Positions 2,277-63,276 are shown, counted from the stretch's first letter. The stretch: 64,000 nt of DNA from an uncultured virus (IMG/VR IMGVR_UViG_3300009169_000002) (IMGVR_UViG_3300009169_000002), one strand, 5' to 3'. The notes: a model not told the origin generated them from the letters alone. Numbers and translations: made by a program.

Positions 2277-3977
2277 ATGACAATTGTAGCAGCAGACTGG
2301 AGCGTTGACCGCACCACCAAGAACGTCCGGTACATCGGTGACGACCATGTGCGCTTCGGCGGCACGACCCCGAGTTATGCGACGGTCATCGAATTTCACC
2401 GTTGGTTGCAGGACTTGGCGGATGACGCCAGCTACGCAGGCAACGACGAGCTCGACATCACGGACGTTACCCCGTCCGAGCGTGCAACGGACAACTTCGT
2501 CACGCTCATCAACGGGTACAACATCGACGCCACCACGGCGGAGCACTTGTACGACGGCTCCATTGTGCAGGGCGGCGGCACCGACATCTGGGACGGCATC
2601 GTCAACTTCGGTAACTCCGACGTCCAGATCCAGCTCATCCAGAACGGCGCGGTGCTGGCGGACGATTGGTGGAACACTGCGAGCGGCGGTCTGAACTCCG
2701 ACGCCACTGCGGGTATCTCGCACCGCTTCATGCTCAAGACGCGCACGTCGGGCACGGACATCGACTTGCGCAAGATCCTCGGCACAGCGCGTCGCTTCGG
2801 CAAGACGTACAGCGAGTTCAACATCAACGGCACCTCGCGCGGTAACAACGTCCTCGCGTTGGCAGACGCCACCGACTTGAACAACGCGACGGTCATCGGT
2901 ACGGTCGCGGGTTGGGCCACGATTGCCAATATCACGGAAGGGTACAACCCCATCGACATCGACAACGATGGCGACAACGAGTTCCTGTACAGCGAATGGA
3001 ACCGCGACATCTACTCGATCAACCAGTTCTACGAGCGCATGAAGTGGCTCACGCGCGACGGTTCAACGGAGACCCTGTACGGCCTGAGCGGTGAACTGTT
3101 CCGCGGTATCACCCACGAACTCACGATGACCACGCCGCGCAGCGGCACGTTCAGCGCGTTCGAGGCAGTCAGTTGGTCGGGCGGCACGGGCCAGATGCTT
3201 GCGGTGAACGTCGCAGCAGCGGCCACCAAAATCTGGATTCAGCTGCTGACGGGTACTGCCCCGGGAACGGGTGTGCTCATCACGGGTGGCTCGTCCGGCG
3301 CAACCGGCACGACCAGTGGCTCCGCGCTCGAGCGGCCTGTGTCGAAGCCCTTCTGCGGTGTCAGCACGGGTTCAGCGCTCATCGGTGCGTTCGGCTTCTC
3401 GCTCGAGTACGCTGACCTTTCGAACACCGACCTCATCACAGCCCTGGACGGTGTGACGTACAGCCCACCGAACAACGTCACGTTCAGCGTCGGCGGCCTG
3501 GTCGTAGGCGAGGACCGTGTGCTCGTGGGACCGGAGCTCGCAGGCGGCTTGAACTACGGGCAGTTCGCGCTCAACGGTGCGCTGACAGGTGCAGCGGTGA
3601 CCGCTGTGGTCATCACCGGCCCCATCCCTGCGGACACGCCGAGCAGCGGCACCATCCGTATCGAGCGCGCGGACGGAGCATACACGCTGCATCCGTACAG
3701 CTCGTGGACCGGCAGCACGTTCACGATCACCTCGCACAACTTCAGCACGAACAATGCTGCCAACGCTGCGGACGTGTTCATCAGCTACATCGACAAGCTC
3801 GCAGCGAGCACGACCGAGTCTTTCACGGTTGTGTATGCAGGCTCGCCTCGAGCGCTGTTCATTCGTGTGCGCGACGGTGGCACGGTTGGCGCCAGCCCCA
3901 TCAAGACCTTCGAAACGACGGGTTCGCTCGGTGCAGCAGGCGGCAGCACGACAGCGATCCGCACGCCCGACTTGTAA
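2277..3977 (+). CDS. putative virion structural protein (566 aa)
   Basis: RBS GAGG; G/T/A/S-rich; strongly C/G-ending codons like the capsid and tail genes. Confidence 0.7.
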   Translation: MTIVAADWSVDRTTKNVRYIGDDHVRFGGTTPSYATVIEFHRWLQDLADDASYAGNDELDITDVTPSERATDNFVTLINGYNIDATTAEHLYDGSIVQGGGTDIWDGIVNFGNSDVQIQLIQNGAVLADDWWNTASGGLNSDATAGISHRFMLKTRTSGTDIDLRKILGTARRFGKTYSEFNINGTSRGNNVLALADATDLNNATVIGTVAGWATIANITEGYNPIDIDNDGDNEFLYSEWNRDIYSINQFYERMKWLTRDGSTETLYGLSGELFRGITHELTMTTPRSGTFSAFEAVSWSGGTGQMLAVNVAAAATKIWIQLLTGTAPGTGVLITGGSSGATGTTSGSALERPVSKPFCGVSTGSALIGAFGFSLEYADLSNTDLITALDGVTYSPPNNVTFSVGGLVVGEDRVLVGPELAGGLNYGQFALNGALTGAAVTAVVITGPIPADTPSSGTIRIERADGAYTLHPYSSWTGSTFTITSHNFSTNNAANAADVFISYIDKLAASTTESFTVVYAGSPRALFIRVRDGGTVGASPIKTFETTGSLGAAGGSTTAIRTPDL

Positions 3978-3980
3978 TAA

Positions 3981-5558
3981 ATGGCAGCGGCAGCCTACAC
4001 CACAGACCTGACCGATATTGATACGGCTGAAACGAACGGCACGTACACCAATATCGGGACAGGTGCGGACGCGCAGGAGACGGACTACTTCATCCAAGGA
4101 AGTGCGTGCGTCTCCAAGCCGTTCAACATTACTGCGGGTGGCATCTACCACAACGAAGGCGCGGCAATCACGTTTGCCACGGACGAGTGCTACTGGCTGT
4201 GGACATACTTCGGCGCACCGAACGCGCTGCTGTCTGAGACCGCAGGCGGGATGCAGGCGTTCGTGGGCTCGAGCGGTACAGCTTACCGTCTGTGGGACTT
4301 GTACGGCTCCGATAACTACACGTATGGCGGTTGGCGTTGCTACCCCGTTGACGTTGTCAACGTTGCAGCAGACGACACGGTAGGCGCTCCGACAGGAACG
4401 CGCCAATACTTCGGGTGCTATGCGCGAACCTCCGTTGGCATCGGCAAGGGCAACCCGCTCGGCTTGGACGTTATGCGTAAGGGGCGCGGAGAGCACCGCT
4501 ACGCGAACGGCGACCTCGCCAACGGTTACGCCACGTTCGCAGGCTTCGAGGCTGTTAACAGCGCGCAGAGCGCTCGTTGGGGCTTGTGCCAATTCGAGGA
4601 TGGCAGCTACCGCATACAGGGAATGATCGTGCTCGGGTACGTGAACCCCGTGGACTTCCGCGACTCGAACAAGAACCTCGTCTGGAACAACACGAAGAAG
4701 GTCACCTCGGGCTTCAACCGGATTGAAGTGCGGCAGGCCGGTTCGCGCGTGGACTGGACGAACATCAATATCACCGCGCTTGGCACGGTAGCGCGCGGGA
4801 ACTTCGAGTGCATTGCCAATGCGGACGTGAACCTCGATACGTGCGTGTTCACCGACATGGGTACGTTTATATTCCAGTCCGCTTCAACGATTGATACATG
4901 CACCTTCCGCCGCTGCGATCAGGTGACAGCAGGCGGCGCAGCGTTCACGGACTGCACGTTCTCGCGCACGACAGCAGCTTCAGCTGTGTCCGCGACAACG
5001 CTCAACATCTTCGACAACTGCCAGTTCACTTCGGACGGCAGCAGTCACGCTGTGAACCTCGGCACCATTGCTGCGACCACGGCAATGAACTGGAACAACT
5101 TTGCGTCTGGGTACGCAGCGACCAACGGCAGCACCGGCAACGAAACGATCCTCGTCAACGTGGCATCGGGGCAGACGCTTACAATCAACGTTGGCGCAGG
5201 GTACACGACGCCCACGTATTACAACACGGGTGCAGGAACCGTGACGGTTGTGTCCGGGCAAGTTACGACGGAAATCACCGTCATCGACGTCGTGACAGGT
5301 TTGCCGCTACAGAATGCGCGCGTGTACCTCACTGCGACGGGTGGCGGACCGCTGTCGGATGGTACGGTTATCTTCAACACGCTGACCGACGTGAACGGGC
5401 AGGTGAGCGACATCCGCTCGCTTGCTGCGAACCAACAGGTGACCGGATGGGTGCGCAAGTCTACGAGCGCACCGTTCTATAAGAACTCACCCATCACCGG
5501 CACAATCAGCAACGCGACCGGGCTGTCGCTCACCGTGCAGATGATCCCTGATGAATGA
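3981..5558 (+). CDS. putative virion protein with parallel beta-helix and C-terminal Ig-like domain
   Basis: Repeats LDTCVFTD/IDTCTFRR/FTDCTFSR/FDNCQFTS; C-terminal TGLPLQNARVYL..TDVNG. Confidence 0.65.
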   Translation: MAAAAYTTDLTDIDTAETNGTYTNIGTGADAQETDYFIQGSACVSKPFNITAGGIYHNEGAAITFATDECYWLWTYFGAPNALLSETAGGMQAFVGSSGTAYRLWDLYGSDNYTYGGWRCYPVDVVNVAADDTVGAPTGTRQYFGCYARTSVGIGKGNPLGLDVMRKGRGEHRYANGDLANGYATFAGFEAVNSAQSARWGLCQFEDGSYRIQGMIVLGYVNPVDFRDSNKNLVWNNTKKVTSGFNRIEVRQAGSRVDWTNINITALGTVARGNFECIANADVNLDTCVFTDMGTFIFQSASTIDTCTFRRCDQVTAGGAAFTDCTFSRTTAASAVSATTLNIFDNCQFTSDGSSHAVNLGTIAATTAMNWNNFASGYAATNGSTGNETILVNVASGQTLTINVGAGYTTPTYYNTGAGTVTVVSGQVTTEITVIDVVTGLPLQNARVYLTATGGGPLSDGTVIFNTLTDVNGQVSDIRSLAANQQVTGWVRKSTSAPFYKNSPITGTISNATGLSLTVQMIPDE

Positions 5559-36291: not shown

Positions 36292-36627
36292 TCAGTTTGC
36301 CGCGTGGCTGTTTGCGCGCCAGCGGTAGTATTGGATGCGTGCTGTGTTGATATTCCAATGCCGACGCTTAGCTAGGCGCCGAATCTCTTCCAGCGATGGG
36401 GCAGCACCCTGTTCGCGGCTTACCTTGTCCAAGGTGTCCCAAATTTTGGCACACCGTCCGCCCTTCACCGGGCGGGAGAACTTGGAACCGCTTTGGTCTT
36501 CCGGAGCAGGCGCTTCACCAGACGCGATCGCGTTGTGAACTGCGCCAAAAACAATCTCCGCCAAGGGCGCTTGCAGTGCTTCAAGAACACGCTTGCTGAT
36601 TGATTGCTCTAAGTTAGAACCAACCAT
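36292..36627 (-). CDS. putative DNA-binding protein (paralog 1 of 4)
   Basis: RP..GG.C..IWDTLD..AP..WNINTARIQYYRWR; RBS AAGGAG; promoter TTGCTT-N17-TAAGCT at 36706-36678. Confidence 0.7.
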   Translation of the reverse strand: MVGSNLEQSISKRVLEALQAPLAEIVFGAVHNAIASGEAPAPEDQSGSKFSRPVKGGRCAKIWDTLDKVSREQGAAPSLEEIRRLAKRRHWNINTARIQYYRWRANSHAAN

Positions 36628-43567: not shown

Positions 43568-44002
43568 TTACGCTGCGCTCGCGGTTGCCGGCTTCTCCGA
43601 ACGGCCCGTGACGCCGTTGAACTTCCGCCACTTGGCGTACTGCGTCCGCACGGTCGCTTCCGCCATGCCCGGGGCGCGCTTGATCGCGTCACCGATGACG
43701 GCAGGGGCGCCCGTCTCGCGGCTCAGGGCATCGAAGATGTCCCAGGCGTTGCCGGTCGTGGTGCCAGCCTTCGGGCGCGTCACGCCGTTCTGGGACGGCT
43801 GCTTCGCGCTTTCCTTCGCAGCTTCCTTGGCGGCCTTCGCGTCAGCCTTGGCCTGGACCTTCGCGTCGGCCTTCGCCTTGCGCTCCGCGTCCTTGGCTTC
43901 CTTCGCGGCAGCCTTCTCGGCAGCCTTCGCAGCCGCAGCCGCAGCCTTCGCGGCAGCTTTCTCTTCCGCCGTCGGTTCGGCGGCCTTGGTCTCTTCGGTC
44001 AT
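43568..44002 (-). CDS. Ala/Lys-rich putative DNA-binding protein (paralog 2)
   Basis: AK-rich N-terminus; QNGVTRPK.G..WDIFD..TVRTQYAKWRKFNG. Confidence 0.8.
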   Translation of the reverse strand: MTEETKAAEPTAEEKAAAKAAAAAAKAAEKAAAKEAKDAERKAKADAKVQAKADAKAAKEAAKESAKQPSQNGVTRPKAGTTTGNAWDIFDALSRETGAPAVIGDAIKRAPGMAEATVRTQYAKWRKFNGVTGRSEKPATASAA

Positions 44003-44092
44003 TTCGTCTCTCCTCGGTTAAAAAATCTGGATCACTAACCCATCATTCGGGCTCTGGAGCATACTAGCCTGTCCTCTGCGTGTCCGCAATCC

Positions 44093-44824
44093 CTAGGACA
44101 AACTATTTGCCTTGCGCCACGCTGCACCCTGCACGCTCACCGTGTTGGGGTTCCATCCGTGCTGTACCGCGAGCTCTTTAATCCGGGCTCGGGACGGTGC
44201 GGCACCGTTGTTGATTGTTCGCTCCGCGTCGAGGGTTGCCCAGATTTGCTGGCATACCCCACTTTTCGGACGTGCTGCTGTCGCTGCCCTGCGCGGTGCG
44301 TGCGCTGCGCTGCGCTTGGGTGCGGCTTCGGTAGCGGCTGCGGCGGCTGCGTGCTGTTGCCCACGCTGTAGCGAGCGCGCAGTGTGCTTCTGCACCGTTG
44401 CCGCAACCTCGGCAGCAGTGGGGGCAGGTAGCGGGTCGCTGAACAGCGTCACCTCCTGCCACTTGGGAACGGACGACCCGGCAACGTACGAGTATCCAGG
44501 CTTCCCGTCGGCGCTCTTGCGCTCGAGCCACTCCGCTTGTGCTTCCGCTTCAGCGGGGTCCGCAGCGCTGACCGGGAACCGTTCAGTGAGGTCCGCCAGC
44601 ACCATGCGCAGCGAGTGGCTGATTGCGGGGACGTGGTCCGCGTGCGTGGCGTGCTTGTACAGCAGCGCGAGCTCTTGGTCCGTGAAGTCCTTGAACAGCC
44701 CTGGATCATCCGTCAGACCGAGCGTGGTCTGCTTGTGCGCGATGAAGTCCAAGTTCGCAACACACCGATAGTCGGCATGCTTGTGAAGGAACTGCATCTT
44801 GTCCATGTCGATTGAAATGTACAT
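44093..44824 (-). CDS. protein with the same C-terminal domain (paralog 3)
   Basis: RPKSGVCQQIWATLD..APS..WNPNTVSVQ..WRK. Confidence 0.75.
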   Translation of the reverse strand: MYISIDMDKMQFLHKHADYRCVANLDFIAHKQTTLGLTDDPGLFKDFTDQELALLYKHATHADHVPAISHSLRMVLADLTERFPVSAADPAEAEAQAEWLERKSADGKPGYSYVAGSSVPKWQEVTLFSDPLPAPTAAEVAATVQKHTARSLQRGQQHAAAAAATEAAPKRSAAHAPRRAATAARPKSGVCQQIWATLDAERTINNGAAPSRARIKELAVQHGWNPNTVSVQGAAWRKANSLS

Positions 44825-44895
44825 GGCGGAACTTTAGCCCATGGTTCGTTTAGAAGCAAGAGGGAGGGGAGGGTATTTCTACCCTCCCCGGCAGG

Positions 44896-45378
44896 TCACT
44901 CCGCACCTTCCTCGTCGGCTTCCGGGGCGGCGACGACCACACCGTTGAACTGCTTCCAGCGCTGATACTGCGTGTAAGCCGTGTTCCGCTGCCAGCTGTT
45001 GGCGCGCATGAGGTCGCGGACCACTTCGAACGTCGGGACCGACTTGCTGCTGACCCGGACCGCATCGAGCGCGTCCCAGATTTCGCGGCAGATCGAACCG
45101 AGCGACGGCTTGGTGACGCCGTTCTGCTTGGGGCGACCCTTTTCGATCTTGAGCGACTTCTGCACCACCACTTCGCCGGCCGTCTTGGCGCGGATGCTGT
45201 GGGTCGGCTTCGGCTGCGGGGCCGGTGCGGGCTCCGACTTGACTGCGGGGGTCTGCACCACTTCGAGGGCGGCCAGCGCAGCGCGCATGCCGTCGTTGTT
45301 GAGGTTGCCGTACTTGACGCCAGCGGCCTTGCAGGCAGCGCGGAGTTCGACCTTACCCATTTCGTTGAAGTTCGTCAT
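44896..45378 (-). CDS. HEH/Rho-N-like domain plus the same C-terminal domain (paralog 4)
   Basis: EMGKVELRAACKAAGVKYGNL; QNGVTKP..ICREIWDALD..NTAYTQYQRWKQFNG; promoter TTGACG-N17-TAGTAT. Confidence 0.75.
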   Translation of the reverse strand: MTNFNEMGKVELRAACKAAGVKYGNLNNDGMRAALAALEVVQTPAVKSEPAPAPQPKPTHSIRAKTAGEVVVQKSLKIEKGRPKQNGVTKPSLGSICREIWDALDAVRVSSKSVPTFEVVRDLMRANSWQRNTAYTQYQRWKQFNGVVVAAPEADEEGAE

Positions 45379-53822: not shown

Positions 53823-56192
53823 CTATCCACCGTTGCTCGGGAACGCTTCGAGGATGCGGTAGCACTTACCGTGAAACCCGTAGGCGTCGACCATCTTGTC
53901 CTTCTGCACTTCCATGACGTAACCGTTGTCGACCAAGCTGCGCATGACTTGCTTCGTTGCTTCCGTGCTGCCACCCTTGTGCGCTGTGAACGCAGGCAAG
54001 CGCTGGCACTTTTTCTGGATGAGCGAGTGCGGGAAGATTGCATTGTCGCGCATGGCAGGCGGAACCTTGTACCCGGGCGGCACACCGTTCAAGAAGTAGT
54101 CGCGTATGATGCTGACGACCTTGTTCTCGCGGCTCGTGTCGTCCGTACCGACGTCACCCTCGTCCAACTTGCGCTGCATGATACCGATGTCGCGGCGCAC
54201 CACGAGCAGCGCCCACTCCAAATGCTCGAGGGTTATGCATGGGTGCGCGAAGTTGTCCCCGACCGCGAGCAACGCGCTGAGGCGCATTACCTTGAGCGAC
54301 GCGCGGTTCCACATCTGCCGCCAGCTTTCGTCCTTGGTCTTGTTGATCTGCGTGTCGCACTCCTGCTCGAATGCCCACATGACTTGTGCAGCGTCCGCAG
54401 CAATGCTGACGGGTACGCTTTGGTTCGTACCGATTTTGCCCTGTGCAGTGGATGCCATGGCGCCTAAGTATTCGCTTACGACCTGTGGCGGCTCGCGGAG
54501 TTGGTTGCGGTTCAGTGCAGGTCGTTCGCCCGTGTACTCCACAATGATGAAGCGCGACAGGAACCCGTCCTCCATCATGGACTCGGTCAGCGACGTGTAA
54601 AAGGTCTTCGGGGTCGTCTCGCCAATCATGCTGTACGCGACACCGCTCACGCTCTGGATGTTGCTGTCCTTGTTCGAGTACGTGATGCCACCGACGATCG
54701 CGCTCGGACCGGACTTCTGGTACAGGTCCGTCATTGTCCTGCGCAGTGTGGACATCGAGGTGTCGCGTCCGTCGTCCACAGCAAGCCGACGCAGCTTGTG
54801 TCCCCACTCACCGCACACGTTCACGAAGCATGTGTTCGCTGCGCACGCTTTAATGAGCGCAGGCCCGGAAGCGAAGTCGCTGAAGTCCACGAACATTTGG
54901 ATTGCTGGCGAGCGTTGCGACGCTGCCTTGACTAGCGCGCTGACGCCGCTGTGCATTGCTTCCTTGCCGATAGCAGACTGCGCGACGAGGATCATGTAAA
55001 TGTTCAAGCCGCTGTTCGGGATGTGCCACGCCTTAGCGCTCAACCCTGCAAGCAACCCCAGAGCACCAACGATTGCGACCTCCTTCACGGGGCGCGGTGC
55101 GCTGTCGTATATGAACTGCGCTAGCACGCGCGTGAACCCGGGCGGCCATGGTAACCCCTGCTCCCCTGCGATCGCGCTCGCAGCGCTAGCGGGTGCGGCA
55201 AGCGCTGCTGCGACCGGGGGCGGCACTGGTGAGGGTTCGGCAATGGTCAGCTGAGTGCGGCGCATGTCGCCGAGCGCACGCACGCTGCTGTCGATGCCCT
55301 TGACTTCCGACTTGTCCTCGTTGGCTTGGCGTGTGCGGATGGTAACGAGCGTGAGGTTGAGGTATCGGTCGTTCTTCTGCGACTTCTCCCGCTGCCCGAG
55401 CGCCGACTTGCGGAACAACCTGCGGCACTGTTCGTTCGACTTGCTGTAGAACGTGAACATGGACATGAGCGCAAGGTCCGCTTCCGACTGCGAAGGGTAG
55501 CCCAAGCGCTGCCACTCGCCGCGCCACAGCGCTTGGAAGTTCAGCGCGTTGTCTGCTGCCCAGGCGCGCTCCATTAGCACCTCGTCGGTGATGGTTGCTT
55601 CCACTTCCTCGAGCTTGATAGCGTCGACACGCTCACGCGCTGTGAGGTACATGGACGCGAACGCATTCACCCACTCGTTGCGCTCACGTATCGGACGGTC
55701 GAGCGCGATGTTACCCGTGCAGATAATGTAGCGGCCCGACGTGTACGCTTCGACGTTGTCACGACGGTAACCCTTGCTCAGCGTTGCACGGGTCCAGATG
55801 TGCAACCCCTTGCCCGACTGCGAGGTCTCCGCATACGTGTCGAAGTTCTGCGCAATCTCCCATATCCAATTGAACTGGTCCGGGTGCGTCCACTTGGACT
55901 CGTCAATGGGTTCGCCTTTCTTGCGCTGCGACTCCGCGTCGCGCACGTCGAAGTCGATGCAGCAGTACGGGTCTGAGTCGCAGAGCACAAACCCCACACC
56001 ATACCCCCGCTGCTGCGCGTGGTGAGCCGCAACCTCGAAGGGTAACCATTGCTCGGGGTTAACCGAGCTCGCTGCGTATAGCTGTCCGTGGGCGTCTACC
56101 GACAGAGGGGTCTTGTCCGGGGCTGCGATAACCCACTGCGGAAGACCTCGAAGCTCTGCGGGTATGCGGCCCCAATTGGCCGCTGATGTCAC
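53823..56192 (-). CDS. primase-polymerase/helicase (Prim-Pol-like plus DUF3987-like)
   Basis: IPAELRGLPQWV; IDFD; SQSGKGLHIW; SQSEADLAL; AQSAIGKE; DGFLSRF. Confidence 0.88.
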   Translation of the reverse strand: MTSAANWGRIPAELRGLPQWVIAAPDKTPLSVDAHGQLYAASSVNPEQWLPFEVAAHHAQQRGYGVGFVLCDSDPYCCIDFDVRDAESQRKKGEPIDESKWTHPDQFNWIWEIAQNFDTYAETSQSGKGLHIWTRATLSKGYRRDNVEAYTSGRYIICTGNIALDRPIRERNEWVNAFASMYLTARERVDAIKLEEVEATITDEVLMERAWAADNALNFQALWRGEWQRLGYPSQSEADLALMSMFTFYSKSNEQCRRLFRKSALGQREKSQKNDRYLNLTLVTIRTRQANEDKSEVKGIDSSVRALGDMRRTQLTIAEPSPVPPPVAAALAAPASAASAIAGEQGLPWPPGFTRVLAQFIYDSAPRPVKEVAIVGALGLLAGLSAKAWHIPNSGLNIYMILVAQSAIGKEAMHSGVSALVKAASQRSPAIQMFVDFSDFASGPALIKACAANTCFVNVCGEWGHKLRRLAVDDGRDTSMSTLRRTMTDLYQKSGPSAIVGGITYSNKDSNIQSVSGVAYSMIGETTPKTFYTSLTESMMEDGFLSRFIIVEYTGERPALNRNQLREPPQVVSEYLGAMASTAQGKIGTNQSVPVSIAADAAQVMWAFEQECDTQINKTKDESWRQMWNRASLKVMRLSALLAVGDNFAHPCITLEHLEWALLVVRRDIGIMQRKLDEGDVGTDDTSRENKVVSIIRDYFLNGVPPGYKVPPAMRDNAIFPHSLIQKKCQRLPAFTAHKGGSTEATKQVMRSLVDNGYVMEVQKDKMVDAYGFHGKCYRILEAFPSNGG

Positions 56193-56434
56193 GCGCGTTT
56201 CTCCCGCCTAGCTTTGAGCTTGTGCTCCCACGCTTGCAGGCAGGGCTCCGCAGCCGCTCGCTCCCACACGTAAACCCCACCCCCGACGGTGATAGGGGCA
56301 GGCAGGTCGCCGCGCTGCTGCGCGAACGTCAGCGTGCAGTGCGCAACGTTTAAGCGCTTGCGTATCTCGAGCCCGGAGATGTACATGAGGTCGAAGCGAT
56401 GCTGTGCAGCTTTATCAGGACTAGCCCCGGGCAT
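56189..56434 (-). CDS. small HTH (AlpA-like) protein
   Basis: EIRKRLNV..RGDLPAPITVG..W. Confidence 0.65.
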   Translation of the reverse strand: MPGASPDKAAQHRFDLMYISGLEIRKRLNVAHCTLTFAQQRGDLPAPITVGGGVYVWERAAAEPCLQAWEHKLKARREKRA

Positions 56435-56519: not shown

Positions 56520-57113
56520 TCAAGCGGGGCGAACAGGTCGCTCCGTCGCTTTCGCGCGTTTGAACTCGCTACGTGCTTCCTCGACGTAGCTGTCCCACTG
56601 CGCAAGCGCTTCCTTGCGCGCGGACACACGTCGACGCCACTCGATATTCCAGCCCTCAATCCACGCCTCCCGCGCTGCGCAGTCCTGCTCCCACGCCTCG
56701 AGCGCAGGGTTGCTGAGCACAGTCGGCGCAGGCTTGTCAACCTTTTTAGATTTGCGTCCAGGCTTGCGCTTGGTCTGGTCCTTGGTGTATCCTTCAGCAT
56801 GGATTTGGAGCGCAGCCAAGGAGAGCACAACCTTCCCGCCGATGTACGGGGACGGGCGGTTCCAGCAATGTGGCCACCAACTGAGAATGAACTCCTGCTG
56901 ATCCACGGGGAGCATCTTGATCTCAGCGTACTGCTCCGCGGTCGGCCCCTCGGAACCGCCGCCAAACACAAACGCTTCGGGCGTGCTTGTAACGGGCGGG
57001 AGCTCGTTGTGCGTGATTGCAGCCGGCGGCAGACCCGTCGTGCCTTCTGGTAAATCATTCGGAGGCGCTCCGAGATCAAACGGAACGCCGGGAGGCCTCA
57101 TATCATTTGCCAT
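56520..57113 (-). CDS. hypothetical protein
   Basis: 197 aa; starts at edge of repeat array. Confidence 0.7.
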   Translation of the reverse strand: MANDMRPPGVPFDLGAPPNDLPEGTTGLPPAAITHNELPPVTSTPEAFVFGGGSEGPTAEQYAEIKMLPVDQQEFILSWWPHCWNRPSPYIGGKVVLSLAALQIHAEGYTKDQTKRKPGRKSKKVDKPAPTVLSNPALEAWEQDCAAREAWIEGWNIEWRRRVSARKEALAQWDSYVEEARSEFKRAKATERPVRPA

Positions 57114-57304
57114 TTTTGAGATCCAATCATGGTTTGAAAATTTTGAGATCTTATCAGACTTTTTGAAAATTTTGAGATCTTATCACCTTTTTTCAAAATT
57201 TTGAGATCTTACGGGGTTTTTGGATTTTTGAGATCTTACGGGGTTTTCCAAATTTTGAGATCTTATCACCTTTTTTGGAAAAGTTGAGATCTTACGGGGT
57301 TCCC
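57113..57304. repeat. seven-copy TTGAGATC(TTA) tandem array, iteron-like
   Basis: Copies at 57116, 57143, 57172, 57201, 57228, 57255, 57284 (period 27-29). Confidence 0.9.
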
Positions 57305-58459: not shown

Positions 58460-58820
58460 AGCTTTTTATTAAAGTTTTTATTTTATTTTGTGCTTGACGT
58501 AGCAGCACAATTCAGCTAATGCAGTTTTTTATTTTTTGGTGGTGCTAAAAATAGCCATTAGCACTGTTTTGCGATTACCCCCGGCTATATGCCGCGCACG
58601 CTTTTAGAAAAAGATTTATGGCGCGGCATATACAAACAGGGTGTCCCTACTATTTTATTTAATTACTATTATTGTGTATAAGTGCTTGCTTTCATTGGGA
58701 GTTCTGTGTTATCCGCTGGATTTAACGCTGCTAATTGTAGGTCAAGCGGTCCACGGCACGCGCTAGCATGTGGTTATCCATACGTCAAGCGCTTTGCAAT
58801 TAAAAATAATTCGTCCAAAC
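58460..58820. other. AT-rich divergence region with 12-bp inverted repeat
   Basis: TATATGCCGCGC 58586-58597 / GCGCGGCATATA 58621-58632. Confidence 0.6.
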
Positions 58821-58962: not shown

Positions 58963-59196
58963 ATGAACAACGTCAAAGCACCCGCCCACCTCGACACACT
59001 GGTCGTTTTTGAAACGCGGGAAGAGGACTACGAAGGGAACCTGCACTGCGCACACGGTAGCGATGGAAAGTTCTACTTGTTTTACGAAGGGGGCACTTTT
59101 AACGACGGCAGCGACTACTTCCAGTTCAACACACTGCCCGAAGCGTTTAAGCGCGCAGCCGAGTTGACCGCCGAGCTTTTGGGTATTGACGACTGA
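58963..59196 (+). CDS. early hypothetical protein
   Basis: RBS GGAG; flanked by promoter and terminator. Confidence 0.7.
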   Translation: MNNVKAPAHLDTLVVFETREEDYEGNLHCAHGSDGKFYLFYEGGTFNDGSDYFQFNTLPEAFKRAAELTAELLGIDD

Positions 59197-59217
59197 ACCC
59201 TTGCAACATCCGGACCA

Positions 59218-59243
59218 AAGGCGCCTGAGGGCGCCTTTTTTTT
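59218..59243 (+). terminator. intrinsic terminator
   Basis: AAGGCGCC-TGAG-GGCGCC-T8. Confidence 0.85.
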
Positions 59244-59247
59244 GCTT

Positions 59248-59395
59248 TGCTGCACTGCGCTGTGAATAAGTCTGTTCATAACTCGCAAGGCGCGTCGATC
59301 GGGACAGTACCGGGGCGGACGTACAGGGTCACCCCTCAAAACGCACAGCGAGCTTTATAATGCGTTCTAGCGAGAATGCAAGATGTGGACCAACT
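59248..59395. repeat. ~150-bp element with tandem DnaA-box-like sites, copy 1
   Basis: Colinear with 62610-62756. Confidence 0.75.
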
Positions 59396-59509
59396 TTGGG
59401 TCCAAAAATATCGAAAATAAATGCGAAAAGGGGTTGACGCACCCCTAGTCTTGATGCACAATTGCGTCATGGTTCAGCAACGTGCTGCACCACCAAACGG
59501 AGACCGAAC

Positions 59510-59782
59510 ATGCGAACCTTCAACTACACCGGAACACTGGTCACGCGCTGCCGCACCACTGGTCACACCGATGCATTTAGCTTCAGCGGGTTCACCTCTT
59601 GGGACGGTGTGGTGCGGGAGCTCAAGTCGCGCGTGCGCAACCCGAACTGCGAGCTGCGCAGCATGGTCGGTGTGGTCATTGAGGACTGCAAGCACGTCGA
59701 CACGTTTGCCTACAATGCGGACGAGCTGCTGGAGCTCACCGGCACGGGGTCGCTCGACGTTGCGCAGTTCCGCAAGCGCTAA
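59510..59782 (+). CDS. early hypothetical protein
   Basis: RBS GGAG. Confidence 0.7.
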   Translation: MRTFNYTGTLVTRCRTTGHTDAFSFSGFTSWDGVVRELKSRVRNPNCELRSMVGVVIEDCKHVDTFAYNADELLELTGTGSLDVAQFRKR

Positions 59783-59878
59783 AAATAAATGCGTCCGGGG
59801 GCTTGACCTGCGGACGCATCCGGATTACACTGTATTCACGGTGGAGCAACGGGTTCCACCCAACCGGAGCAAAGCAAC

Positions 59879-60106
59879 ATGACCACCCAGACCCACGAAC
59901 CGCACGGCACGACGTTTATGCGCAAGCTCAAGGGCCGCAAGCTCCAGTTTGCAATCGGCGGACCAACGCTTGCCGAAATTCAGCGCATGTGCATCGCGGG
60001 TCACGAGGACGTGTTTGTGTGGCAGGGTGACAACAGGCAGGAGGTAGTTTTCCGCAAGCTCGCGGACGGGTCCATCGAAACGCTCAGCGACCGCTTTATC
60101 CCCTAG
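59879..60106 (+). CDS. early hypothetical protein
   Basis: RBS GGAG. Confidence 0.7.
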   Translation: MTTQTHEPHGTTFMRKLKGRKLQFAIGGPTLAEIQRMCIAGHEDVFVWQGDNRQEVVFRKLADGSIETLSDRFIP

Positions 60107-60147
60107 GAGGTGCAAGATCCAGACCAACCAAGCTCAATCCCGAGCGC

Positions 60148-60178
60148 AAAAGGGTCACTTCGGTGACCCTTTTTTTTT
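60148..60178 (+). terminator. intrinsic terminator
   Basis: AAGGGTCAC-TTCG-GTGACCC-T9. Confidence 0.9.
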
Positions 60179-60357
60179 GCCTAAAATACTTGCCTCTACC
60201 TGAACTTTCGTGGTACAATGGTCCAAATGCGTTTCGGACGCGCAAGGCCCCGGATGCTGTGGGGCAGCAAAAATAAATGCGTCAAACCCCTTGACGTGTG
60301 GATGCATCCGGATTATCCTGTCTGCACTAGGTAAGCAGTTCAACAGGAAGTAACCAA

Positions 60358-60513
60358 ATGTCCACCCGCGCCATGACCCTCCGCAACGTCACCGCCCTGC
60401 GCAACAGCCTTGGCAGCAAGCTGTTCGACCGCACGTACCGCTTCCTGCGCGAGGAAGCAATGCGCTCCTCGGACGGTACGGTCCGCACGTTTGCCATTTT
60501 CGAGGTGCGCTAA
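60358..60513 (+). CDS. early hypothetical protein
   Basis: RBS CAGGA; 51 aa. Confidence 0.6.
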   Translation: MSTRAMTLRNVTALRNSLGSKLFDRTYRFLREEAMRSSDGTVRTFAIFEVR

Positions 60514-60514
60514 A

Positions 60515-60706
60515 ATGTACGCACGCGACCTGAAGGCCGGTCAGCGCTTCCAGTTTGTCAACGCTTTTGGCAACGTCCCCGTGAGTGCCCCCGTGTACAC
60601 GGTAACCCGTGACGCGCAGCGCGCAAGCGAGCCCGGGTACTGGATCGTCCACACCAACCTCGAGCGGTGGGCGGGTCGCGGTCGTTCCCCTGTGGTGCTG
60701 CTGTGA
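60515..60706 (+). CDS. early hypothetical protein
   Basis: RBS GAGGT. Confidence 0.6.
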   Translation: MYARDLKAGQRFQFVNAFGNVPVSAPVYTVTRDAQRASEPGYWIVHTNLERWAGRGRSPVVLL

Positions 60707-60909
60707 CCGCAAAGCGCGTCACGCTCAAGTCCAAGGGGTTCGACCGGGCATACCACGTCCTGCTGGACGGTGTCAAGGTCGGCGAGGTAACCCGGCAAAT
60801 TGCTAGCACCACGTACACCGGCAAGGTGAACGACGGTAAGCGGGACTGGCAGGTCTGGGGGTTGAACCAAAAGGAAGTCATTGCTGTGGTGGAAATGTAC
60901 CTCACGTGA
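60703..60909 (+). CDS. early hypothetical protein
   Basis: GTGA overlap. Confidence 0.55.
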   Translation: MTAKRVTLKSKGFDRAYHVLLDGVKVGEVTRQIASTTYTGKVNDGKRDWQVWGLNQKEVIAVVEMYLT

Positions 60910-60989
60910 CCTTCCCAAATGGAATCACGAAACCCTTGACAACCGGATGCATCCGGACCATACTTGCGTCACCTACTAAGGAGACCGAC

Positions 60990-61247
60990 ATGCCCCAAGT
61001 CAAAATGACCGAACTCCCACGCACCGAGCTTGCACAGTTCGACTGGATAGTTGGTCCGGTTTATGCAGCGCACGTTGCGGACCTGTACGACATAGCGCTT
61101 GTGTATCAGGGTCCGGGAGCGTATGCAGTGGTCCGCCCCTCGCACCAGGCCTACGTCGCATGCTGCCCCAACGAGCGCAAAGCGCAGCAACTCATCGAGT
61201 CGCTTGCTGACGCGCTGTCCGACGACGAGCGCACCCGACCCGTCTAA
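60990..61247 (+). CDS. early hypothetical protein
   Basis: RBS TAAGGAG. Confidence 0.7.
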   Translation: MPQVKMTELPRTELAQFDWIVGPVYAAHVADLYDIALVYQGPGAYAVVRPSHQAYVACCPNERKAQQLIESLADALSDDERTRPV

Positions 61248-61270
61248 CCCCTGCAACATCTGGACCAACT

Positions 61271-61294
61271 AAGGGCGCGGAGGCGCCCTTTTTT
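61271..61294 (+). terminator. intrinsic terminator
   Basis: AAGGGCGC-GGAG-GCGCCC-T6. Confidence 0.85.
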
Positions 61295-61454
61295 GCGTCC
61301 AAAAGACTTGCCCTCCCCGCGCGGTTCATGGTACAATGGTCCAAACGGGTTGCGCCCGGGTCGTGCTGCACGGCAGCGAAAATAAAGTGGACGCACCCCT
61401 TGCCTCCTGCATCCGGATGACCCATACTACCAACAGTTCAACAGGAGACCCGAC

Positions 61455-61733
61455 ATGCCCCAAGCCCACACCGCTCGCATCGTTACCTTCCACCGCTCGC
61501 AGGGTTGGACCACAATAACGCTTGACCTCACGAAAAAGTCCGTGGCGGTTTGGGCGCGGTCGGTCGGGTACACGGTCACCGGCGTCAAGGAGCAAAGCTC
61601 CAACCCGCGCATGCAGTTCCGCGCCGAAATGGTGGGTGAACCCATTATTGCGGAACTGGTCGGTCCCATGTACGACGGGGACGGGGTTGTGCGGTACGAA
61701 AGCACCGAAGCCTATGACGCGCTGTCAAGGTAA
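61455..61733 (+). CDS. early hypothetical protein
   Basis: RBS CAGGAG. Confidence 0.7.
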   Translation: MPQAHTARIVTFHRSQGWTTITLDLTKKSVAVWARSVGYTVTGVKEQSSNPRMQFRAEMVGEPIIAELVGPMYDGDGVVRYESTEAYDALSR

Positions 61734-61806
61734 ATAAATCAGCGCGGGGGCTTGACCTCCCCCGTGCGTTGACCTAAGCTGCTCACAGTTCAACAGGAGC
61801 CCCGCA

Positions 61807-61956
61807 ATGACCTTCGACCTGCACATTGACGCAAGCATCCGCGACCTGCTGCTGCAAGCGCTCGCGCCCCTTGCCACGCCCGGTTCCGAAGCGGAAGCTG
61901 TAGCTGACATGCTGCGCGACCTCGAACCCACTGGTCTCAACGACCTCACCGCCTAA
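61807..61956 (+). CDS. early acidic peptide
   Basis: RBS CAGGAG; 49 aa. Confidence 0.65.
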   Translation: MTFDLHIDASIRDLLLQALAPLATPGSEAEAVADMLRDLEPTGLNDLTA

Positions 61957-61965
61957 GGAGTTGAC

Positions 61966-62268
61966 ATGCCCCTCCGCATCTGCTATCACCCGCTGCTCGC
62001 GCAACAGCAAGTCAACACGCGCATGCTCCCCTTCGCCATGTTCGGTATCACGGGAGGGTACGGTCGCACACGCGCTGCACTGGTCGACGCTGTGCGCAAC
62101 GGGAACCATGTGGTCGCCCGGGGCTTGTTCGACAAGCTTGTGCTCGAGGGTGTACGGGACGACGTTAAGGAAAACGGAATCACCGAGCGGGAAGCGTACG
62201 ACGGTCTAGCCCTTGCATGCAAGAACGAGACCATGTTCGCCGGGTTTGTGGTGGAGGGTGCGCTGTGA
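61966..62268 (+). CDS. early hypothetical protein
   Basis: RBS TAAGGAG. Confidence 0.7.
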   Translation: MPLRICYHPLLAQQQVNTRMLPFAMFGITGGYGRTRAALVDAVRNGNHVVARGLFDKLVLEGVRDDVKENGITEREAYDGLALACKNETMFAGFVVEGAL

Positions 62269-62486
62269 CCATCCTCATGACCATTAAGGTCCACGAAGGG
62301 GGAAACCCGAACAACCCCGTTGTCAAGCTCCACGTCGAAAGCGACGGGACCGGCCACAGCTTCACCGTCCGAGCCGGCGGGAAGGCCCTGCTAGCGGATG
62401 GAAGCAAGAATCGTTCGCATCCGGTGCTGAGCGCAGCGACTCAGGATGCACTGCGGGAGGCGACCGCTGTGGTCACCGACCTGTAG
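62265..62486 (+). CDS. early hypothetical protein
   Basis: GTGA overlap; RBS GGAGG. Confidence 0.6.
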   Translation: MTILMTIKVHEGGNPNNPVVKLHVESDGTGHSFTVRAGGKALLADGSKNRSHPVLSAATQDALREATAVVTDL

Positions 62487-62506
62487 AGGGTTGCAAGAAT
62501 TGGACC

Positions 62507-62532
62507 AAAGGGAGCCTCCGGGCTCCCTTTTT
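62507..62532 (+). terminator. intrinsic terminator
   Basis: AAAGGGAGCC-TCCG-GGCTCCC-T5. Confidence 0.85.
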
Positions 62533-62609
62533 ATTTTTCACGCAGGGGCTTGACGTGCATCCGCTAGATGTGGTACAATGGTCCAAACGTCTGCGCGACG
62601 CGCCCGAAT

Positions 62610-62756
62610 TGCTGCGCTGCACTGTGGATAAATCTGTTCATAACTCTCACCATGCGTCGATCGGTCATGCCCCCTTGCGTCGGTACAGGGTCGGTCGAAA
62701 ATCGCTTAAATCGCGTTAGGCGCGGTTCTACGTGGAATGCAAGTCTTGGACCAACT
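62610..62756. repeat. ~150-bp element with tandem DnaA-box-like sites, copy 2
   Basis: TGTGGATAA 62623 and TGTTCATAA 62635. Confidence 0.75.
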
Positions 62757-62838
62757 ATTTGCCGAAAATAGTTCGAAAAAGGGTTGACGTCTGGATGTAG
62801 TTGACGCATACTTGCTTCAGGTTCAACGGGAGAGCGAC

Positions 62839-63201: not shown

Positions 63202-63276
63202 AAATAAAGATGCACGGGGGCTTGACTCCCCGTGCATCCTGACCCACACTACCTCCATCGACTACTGGAGCACGAC

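Follow-up and report, generated by a model that had tools for sequence, protein, structure and literature searches.

Transcription by sigma-54 (RpoN) polymerase needs an activator, and sigma-54 sites placed near other promoters may repress or activate them, according to PMC3844500, which in Salmonella describes silent and intragenic sites along with enhancer-dependent ones. Use of host sigma-54 by a phage is stated for YuA in PMC10914365, and rpoN is negatively autoregulated in Rhizobium leguminosarum (PMC3538637). A sigma-54 promoter in a phage is thus already known, as are sigma-54 sites in general, including silent ones. Here we describe, in the genome of an uncultured virus (IMG/VR IMGVR_UViG_3300009169_000002), an array of repeated boxes turned against the early genes, which are probably binding sites for the sigma-54 polymerase of the host, in a non-consensus GGTCC form. 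The variant array and its match to the leaders of bacterial rpoN genes appear to be new: among the papers searched we found none on phage sigma-54 decoys or on backward sigma-54 boxes in an early region, nor any on the GGTCC variant at rpoN leaders or a phage match to it. The stretch analysed, referred to as the window, is 64,000 nucleotides (nt) long and represents nearly the whole of a circular phage genome of about 64 kb (59% GC).

The original prediction for this window, which had cited the YuA precedent, reported six copies of TGCAA-N5-RGACCAA at the ends of early cassettes. All six are present on the plus strand at the places it gave, and on the minus strand the motif reads TTGGTCY-R-N4-TTGCA. 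An exact seventh copy at 59950 had been overlooked. Copies with one mismatch occur in coding DNA at 62218 (plus strand) and at 61051 (opposite orientation), and one with two mismatches, at 62201, stands head-to-head with 62218. The candidate sites are listed below by the strand on which the box reads, with their rank under the matrix built from rpoN leaders; distances to -35 elements are in base pairs (bp).

59202–59218, minus strand: variant sigma-54 box TTGGTCCGGATGTTGCA, 5 nt past the stop of the gene at 58963–59196, overlapping a terminator stem; rank 6
59377–59393, minus strand: variant sigma-54 box TTGGTCCACATCTTGCA, closing copy 1 of the non-coding block; rank 3
59950–59966, minus strand: exact seventh copy, in coding sequence (CDS) 59879–60106; rank 25 of 127,968
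60111–60127, minus strand: variant sigma-54 box TTGGTCTGGATCTTGCA, 4 nt past a stop codon, 79 bp to the -35 at 60190; rank 4
61051–61067, plus strand (sense): one-mismatch copy, in CDS 60990–61247; rank 5
61252–61268, minus strand: variant sigma-54 box TTGGTCCAGATGTTGCA, 4 nt past a stop codon, 56 bp to the -35 at 61308; rank 7
62201–62234, both strands: head-to-head pair in CDS 61966–62268, 62201 sense with two mismatches and 62218 antisense with one; 62218 has rank 8
62492–62508, minus strand: variant sigma-54 box TTGGTCCAATTCTTGCA, 5 nt past a stop codon, 58 bp to the -35 at 62550; rank 1
62738–62754, minus strand: variant sigma-54 box TTGGTCCAAGACTTGCA, closing copy 2 of the non-coding block, 46 bp to the -35 at 62784; rank 2

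All nine exact or one-mismatch matches of the window are confined to 3.5 kb (59202–62754), when only 0.017 exact matches would be expected in the window. With up to two mismatches allowed, the count is 21 against 8.18 ± 2.54 in 100 shuffles, none of which attained 21. The spacing is invariant, as had been claimed: TGCAA-Nx-RGACCA gives eight matches at x = 5 and none at x = 3, 4, 6 or 7, whichever strand is read. Conservation is uneven across the motif: pairwise identities between the six reported copies are 1.00 for TGCAA, 0.95 for RGACCAA, 0.45 for the spacer and 0.23 and 0.30 for the two flanks, and in the duplicated block (59195–59470 and 62485–62830) both boxes retain their halves while the spacers are altered. 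This retention of the half-boxes while spacers and flanks diverge points to selection on a bipartite site and argues against a mere relic of cassette duplication. The placement first described also held: four copies follow a stop codon at 5, 4, 4 and 5 nt, and a box precedes every U-tailed plus-strand terminator in the early region, of which there are four (59217, 60148, 61271 and 62507). No gene directly precedes the boxes at 59377 and 62738, which instead close the two copies of the duplicated non-coding block.

The sigma-54 reading of the motif is well supported, with one reservation. In its favour, the GG and GC are 10 bp apart without variation in the seven exact copies, all of which also carry TTGG, a purine at -20 and TTGCA, in agreement with the pattern YTGG...R and TTGCW; the purine at -20 is a feature of the sigma-54 consensus. 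The consensus flanks used for this comparison are those given in PMC12316311. The reservation is that the CA following GG is replaced by TC in every copy, and the window contains no exact canonical (GGCAY) box. The identity is open to doubt because this invariant replacement falls on the A-T pair at -23, which sigma-54 contacts (PMC3844500). Nevertheless, TC for CA is a natural variant rather than the consensus, since the same change is found at 11 of 45 bacterial rpoN leaders.

These leaders provide the closest counterpart of the phage boxes. Seven related genomes have in common one intergenic match to the variant, reversed, 23–26 nt ahead of the rpoN start codon. In an order-wide sample of rpoN genes chosen by protein (50 of 60 places, 47 starts located), 17 leaders carry a reverse box, which is TGGTCC in 12, TGGTCT in one and of another form in four; we call this order rhizobia-like, judging by its nearest named relatives. 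A second test took 45 leaders, excluded the genomes found via the phage pattern and demanded only GG-N9-TGC. It returned 20 reverse matches, 11 of them GGTCY and all 11 with the sigma-54 spacing (none at four other spacings), and three forward matches, GGCAT, GGCAC and GGCGC. Scoring with a position weight matrix, proposed at the outset as a check, came out in favour of the motif: the matrix drawn from the 20 leader matches places the six reported sites together with 61051 and 62218 at ranks 1–8 of 127,968 positions. Two phage boxes are identical to the reverse box of a particular leader, namely 62492 to that of L439 (16/16 nt) and 62738 to that of L432 (15/15 nt).

Named bacteria show related arrangements. 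Sinorhizobium meliloti and Shinella have a reverse GGCCC box at the rpoN leader, on a sigma-70-type promoter or just after it, and in Methylobacterium bullatum a reverse canonical GGCAT box is similarly on or just after such a promoter; the Azospirillum leader has no reverse box, and rpoN there closely follows lptB. In some leaders (L426 and some of the named records) the box lies within the sigma-70 promoter, so that it would escape transcription. Rhizobial rpoN autorepression reportedly acts via the reverse box. We also noticed, among the loci that are rpoN leaders (L332–L338, L396–L443), a forward partner box placed back to back after the reverse one in some (L336–L338), and, in a genome with two copies of rpoN, a reverse TTGGTCT box (G060:C1:7714467) some 400 bp ahead of the second copy (L424).

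The bacteria with a GGTCC leader seem to possess an ordinary sigma-54. Their RpoN box is ordinary (ARRTVAKYRE) in the five genomes inspected, and canonical boxes are abundant in five genomes of the order, G390 included (20 versus 7 in G390, 38 versus 5 in G712); together these observations indicate that GGTCC is specific to certain sites and is most likely recognised by an ordinary sigma-54. A host lineage with altered sigma-54 specificity was sought and rejected, the variant never exceeding six copies (control, two) in 401 genomes from the phylum of G003. No general GGTCC excess was found in 121 genomes of the order of G390 either, and in the lone outlier, G708 (15 versus 1), 28 of the 30 variant sites examined lie inside long open reading frames (ORFs). 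Elsewhere the variant is rare: when alphaproteobacterial rpoN loci were sampled at the level of the class (30 loci, 26 starts located), G390 alone had a GGTCC leader.

The second line of comparison concerns the sigma-70 promoters next to the boxes. From 58963 to the end of the window the genome consists of small rightward genes, with repeated sigma-70-type promoters and the four U-tailed terminators between them. The elements, as called from the sequence, are:

59217–59245, plus strand: intrinsic terminator-like hairpin with U-tract
59247–59376, no strand: copy 1 of the non-coding block; DnaA-box-like 9-mer at 59261; RNA folding signal on neither strand
59434–59462, plus strand: sigma-70-type promoter, back to back with box 59377
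60148–60179, plus strand: intrinsic terminator-like hairpin with U-tract
60190–60224, plus strand: sigma-70-type promoter with extended -10, forward TGGTCC half-site directly after (60219)
61271–61295, plus strand: intrinsic terminator-like hairpin with U-tract
61308–61342, plus strand: sigma-70-type promoter with extended -10, forward TGGTCC half-site directly after (61337)
62507–62538, plus strand: intrinsic terminator-like hairpin with U-tract
62550–62584, plus strand: sigma-70-type promoter with extended -10, forward TGGTCC half-site directly after (62579)
62609–62737, no strand: copy 2 of the non-coding block; perfect DnaA-box 9-mer at 62623; RNA folding signal on neither strand
62784–62812, plus strand: sigma-70-type promoter, back to back with box 62738

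Five of the six reported boxes are 46, 56, 57, 58 or 79 bp ahead of a -35 element; box 59377, at 57 bp from the -35 at 59434, is followed by an inverted GGTCC half-site, and box 59202 has no sigma-70 promoter inside 100 bp. A scan of viral DNA for canonical boxes with a T-run gave at least 130 loci, of which 40 of the 130 listed hold at least three canonical boxes, several loci sharing a contig. From these a spacing sample of 25 loci, one per contig, was drawn; 18 of them contain 45 strong sigma-70-like promoters with an antisense box upstream. The 42 spacings between box and -35 that fall at 40–90 bp in these 18 loci cluster at 45–49, 57–60, 67–72 and 78–82 bp and show phasing at 10.5 bp (R = 0.68, or 0.56 if the first peak is left out), and the five spacings of the present phage are in phase with them (p about 0.03). 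Inverted -24 half-sites are likewise found in the canonical arrays of other phages. The variant pattern also picked out L124, a locus of an unrelated phage in which two canonical boxes are no more than 40 bp away from a GGTCC box; right after this mixed array, at 3890–4000, tandem GACGAAC-like repeats are seen.

What would such boxes do? The reading we favour, tentatively and at slightly less than even chances, is that they are sigma-54 docking sites, mostly silent, which titrate the host factor and/or insulate the cassettes; granted that sigma-54 is the reader, the balance tips a little toward sites that are mainly silent. The holoenzyme would form closed complexes at the boxes and, lacking an activator, would mostly not fire. 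As the genome with its approximately nine boxes replicates, host sigma-54 would become parked at the cassette junctions, and the parked enzyme would be titrated away from host sigma-54 genes and/or form a head-on obstacle next to each terminator. With the boxes helically spaced (46, 56–58 and 79 bp to the -35), the sigma-70 early promoter next to a box could be occupied simultaneously. Measured between centres, the -24 GG and the -35 are about 35, 45–47 and 68 bp apart, near half-integral turns, which would place the two polymerases on opposite faces of the helix and permit joint occupancy, a deduction sensitive to 1–2 bp. Mostly silent docking is favoured by the fact that no phage activator or convincing enhancer was found, by coding copies facing both ways, by strong hairpins with no box and by blocks that do not fold, all of which are taken up below. 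The decoy function that the original prediction had listed among its alternatives fits at least as well as the antisense shut-off it preferred. A bolder version, which we regard as unlikely, is that GGTCC and GGCCC mark a distinct "bind-but-do-not-fire" class of sites serving bacterial rpoN feedback, copied by the phage into a helically phased trap for the sigma-54 holoenzyme. The array would then be a DNA-only device for host takeover, damping sigma-54 functions (envelope stress response, surface appendages) and insulating the early cassettes, and it would point to a rhizobia-like host.

Several observations weigh against docking or against its bacterial parallel. GGTCC loses the -23 A-T contact and would make a poor sponge unless affinity is kept, and a pure sponge should favour the consensus box. 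In bacteria the box overlaps the promoter whereas the phage box is 46–79 bp upstream, so that the function need not carry over; a reverse box of any kind is present in only 17 of the 47 order-level leaders, and GGTCY in none of 30 rpoN leaders from the class of G003 (30 of 75 places sampled). Forward GGTCY boxes are found 60–72 nt ahead of plausible sigma-54 genes (L329, L344, L341, L349), so that firing from the variant may be possible, and the phage boxes have small palindromes spaced from them as enhancers would be. The phasing p-values are optimistic because the loci are related and the search required a T-run. No cluster was found in 60 primase-related loci (at most 55% identity, many of them short), and no second GGTCC cluster among the 118 matches listed (80 with flanks) or in 55 other viral loci. 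Finally, the relatives of this phage infect Pseudomonas, Xanthomonas, Variovorax, Acinetobacter and Sphingomonas, and its CsrA best matches those of gammaproteobacterial phages.

The antisense shut-off of early genes proposed originally did not find support, and we consider it rather unlikely. It would require an infection-stress-activated host enhancer-binding protein to fire the boxes, the early cassettes then being silenced by antisense RNA or by collision of polymerases. The boxes do have the full -24/-12 geometry; for the six reported copies, five of the predicted +1 positions are purines and four fall just within the stop codon; and small palindromes are found 105–170 bp upstream, in the enhancer range, one of them, at 60228, NtrC-like. 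The forward GGTCY boxes of bacteria bear on the capacity to fire, and YuA has four antisense RNAs beside its sigma-54-like promoter (PMC10914365). However, Pfam detected no activator domain in the 81 phage ORFs, and neither NifA nor IHF sites were found, the NtrC-like palindrome being a loose and single match. Three or four copies sit in coding DNA, in both orientations. As for the minus-strand hairpins over promoters, on which the proposal relied, one part stands: an antisense RNA of about 300 nt from box 60111 could end at the hairpin and U-tract of promoter 59803, and a weaker hairpin at 61752 could end one from box 62492. In contrast, the hairpins at 63222 and 63587, among the strongest, have no upstream box, promoter 60936, where RNA from box 61252 would be expected to end, lacks a U-tract, and the blocks faced by boxes 59377 and 62738 fold no better than shuffles (z-scores -0.35 and 0.61).

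Sigma-54 or its holoenzyme might instead tune the adjacent sigma-70 early promoter, by competition for the shared A/T-rich linker or by a face-of-helix contact, which would make the array the phage's counterpart of rpoN autorepression. The distances of 46–79 bp in helical phase with the canonical arrays, the TGGTCC half-sites right past the -10 of three such promoters and the overlap seen in the bacterial counterpart speak for this; yet the boxes are clear of the promoter core, only half-sites touching the +1 region, no promoter is found inside 100 bp of box 59202 or of the coding copies, and eight other sigma-70-like promoters of the region, as well as one doubtful match, lack a box, so that we hold this improbable. 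The same low credence goes to a cluster of explanations in which sigma-54 plays no part: a different phage or host DNA-binding protein, an RNA signal ahead of the terminators, or a relic of cassette duplication. The invariant departure from GGCAC, with no exact canonical box in the window, would suit a different reader, and boxes are carried on the duplicated block; the phage also encodes small proteins of no known function and a possible winged-helix protein at 56189–56434, whose fold is a guess. But that protein belongs to a known phage family, and phage NP1 has a gene of similar size at the same place and no cluster, while the same motif with the same spacing stands at rpoN leaders and in series with canonical boxes. 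The RNA-level signal, another of the alternatives first listed, is weakened by the absence of a common fold among the six copies and by the leaders in which the box would not be transcribed, and the conserved half-boxes amid diverged spacers and flanks speak against a relic. On the whole, mostly silent docking remains the reading we favour.

Other candidates were tried and rejected. A structured small RNA from the duplicated block gave z-scores of -0.35 to 0.61 over both strands, and no known RNA family came near the gathering score in Rfam. A CsrA site is broken at its GGA in the AGACCAA copy, and the spacing does not fit marbox or FadR-type palindromes. GGWCC is in excess in early coding DNA (22 versus 15.3, p 0.03), largely through codon usage. 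Avoidance of the phage's own deazaguanine mark may play a part but is not needed to explain the GGT; GGTCC at the bacterial leaders calls for no such reason. PMC7544227 reports that phage CAjan modifies GA and GGC, and GGT only to a small degree, and PMC10484667 places GGT among CAjan DpdA binding sites. In the window the two GGT 6-mer palindromes never occur (27.7 and 22.0 would be expected), only 1 of the 16 GA palindromes is depleted, and those with GGC give a mixed picture, a pattern that fits a GA-type mark; CTGCAG, ACGCGT, GTGCAC, GGTACC and ACCGGT are all missing, as 6-base palindromes without GA often are.

The genome itself is that of a Queuovirinae-like deazaguanine siphophage, on the strength of its primase, 53–55% identical to those of Nipunavirus phages such as JG054 and NP1, and of its deazaguanine genes: a queuine tRNA-ribosyltransferase-like gene, which in our reading is DpdA, with FolE, QueD, QueC and QueE. 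It also encodes CsrA, at 551–730, just past the early region. A contig (L001) matching the window at 99.99% joins the window end to position 1 via 152 extra bases. Scans with the primase and the DUF2786 protein gave this genome as the sole close match. Four DNA runs over the region contain no substitutions and two single-base indels, and the runs that hold half or more of it are metagenomes of freshwater sediment, soil and wetland; no RNA dataset is among the listed runs containing the region. Clues to the host remain divided. The GGTCC match hints at a rhizobia-like host and the CsrA gene at a gammaproteobacterial one, convergence on the variant being possible; matches of the endolysin, which include relatives at 86–87% (P0002, P0003, P0005), and of the tail and CsrA say "proteobacterial" only, without resolving the class. 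Search for CtrA boxes as a host clue found none. Two proteobacterial classes were sampled for rpoN, which is present in 73 of 101 genomes of one and 120 of 151 of the other.

Further features of the region deserve mention. DnaA-box-like 9-mers with a degenerate partner occur in the duplicated non-coding block (59261–59281, 62623–62643) and at 58774; DnaA titration or origin function is possible. About seven tandem TTTTGAGATCTTA-like units, 27–29 nt apart, form an iteron- or origin-like tract at 57112–57294, upstream of the replication genes. At the early promoters 58824, 59434, 59803, 61752, 63222 and 63587 the -35 hexamers are in the loops of inverted repeats, several of which read on the minus strand as a hairpin followed by the U-rich complement of the upstream A-tract. 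The word GCATCCGGA, possibly an operator, is common to promoters 58824, 59803, 60291, 60936 and 61400, in or adjoining the sigma-70 spacer and often palindromic. Tandem promoters at 60190–60290, 61308–61400 and 62550–62620 share one layout: an extended -10 promoter, two small GCTGC-N3-GCAGC-like palindromes and a second promoter. Elsewhere, four paralogous genes of no known function (PHROG families 21588, 11298, 18634 and 17772) surround the DNA modification cluster (36292–36627, 43568–45378).

How does the array compare with known systems? Promoter/stem-loop cassettes (PeSLs) of T4-type phages similarly place repeated terminator-promoter modules between small early genes, and one such block is duplicated here. 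To our knowledge, a sigma-54 box is not part of PeSLs; PeSL-type joints were not seen in the four DNA runs. YuA is, like this phage, a siphophage, and it uses host sigma-54 (PMC10914365), as the present one may, but its sigma-54-like P015 is a mapped active promoter whereas the boxes here are repeated and pointed against genes. The Salmonella sites have the GG and TGC at fixed spacing and, when intragenic, either orientation and weaker conservation at -23 (PMC3844500); the phage boxes differ in the invariant TC for CA, in having no identified enhancer and in their density. Similar in layout are the canonical antisense arrays of other uncultured phages, with backward boxes upstream of sigma-70 early promoters at spacings near 48, 58, 68–72 and 78 bp. 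Those are GGCAY arrays on mostly AT-rich contigs, while the present GGTCY array belongs to a GC-rich genome and its boxes abut stop codons and hairpin terminators. Backward sigma-54 boxes at early-gene junctions thus recur in unrelated uncultured phages.

The reverse site of rhizobial rpoN leaders shares with the phage boxes a non-consensus -24 box (GGTCC or GGCCC), the exact spacing and an orientation against a sigma-70 unit, with identity up to 16/16 nt; all six reported phage copies combine the reversed orientation and the non-consensus box. The bacteria have one site overlapping the promoter or +1, whereas the phage has about nine, fused to terminators, in coding DNA or 46–79 bp upstream of the -35. 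This link makes the question of docking versus firing testable without the phage or its host. Should docking prove true, phages would be able to capture a host sigma factor with DNA sites alone, and sigma-54 would have a class of sites tuned for repression. The present phage connects the array layout with the reverse rpoN box, to which a likely function can be assigned in bacteria.

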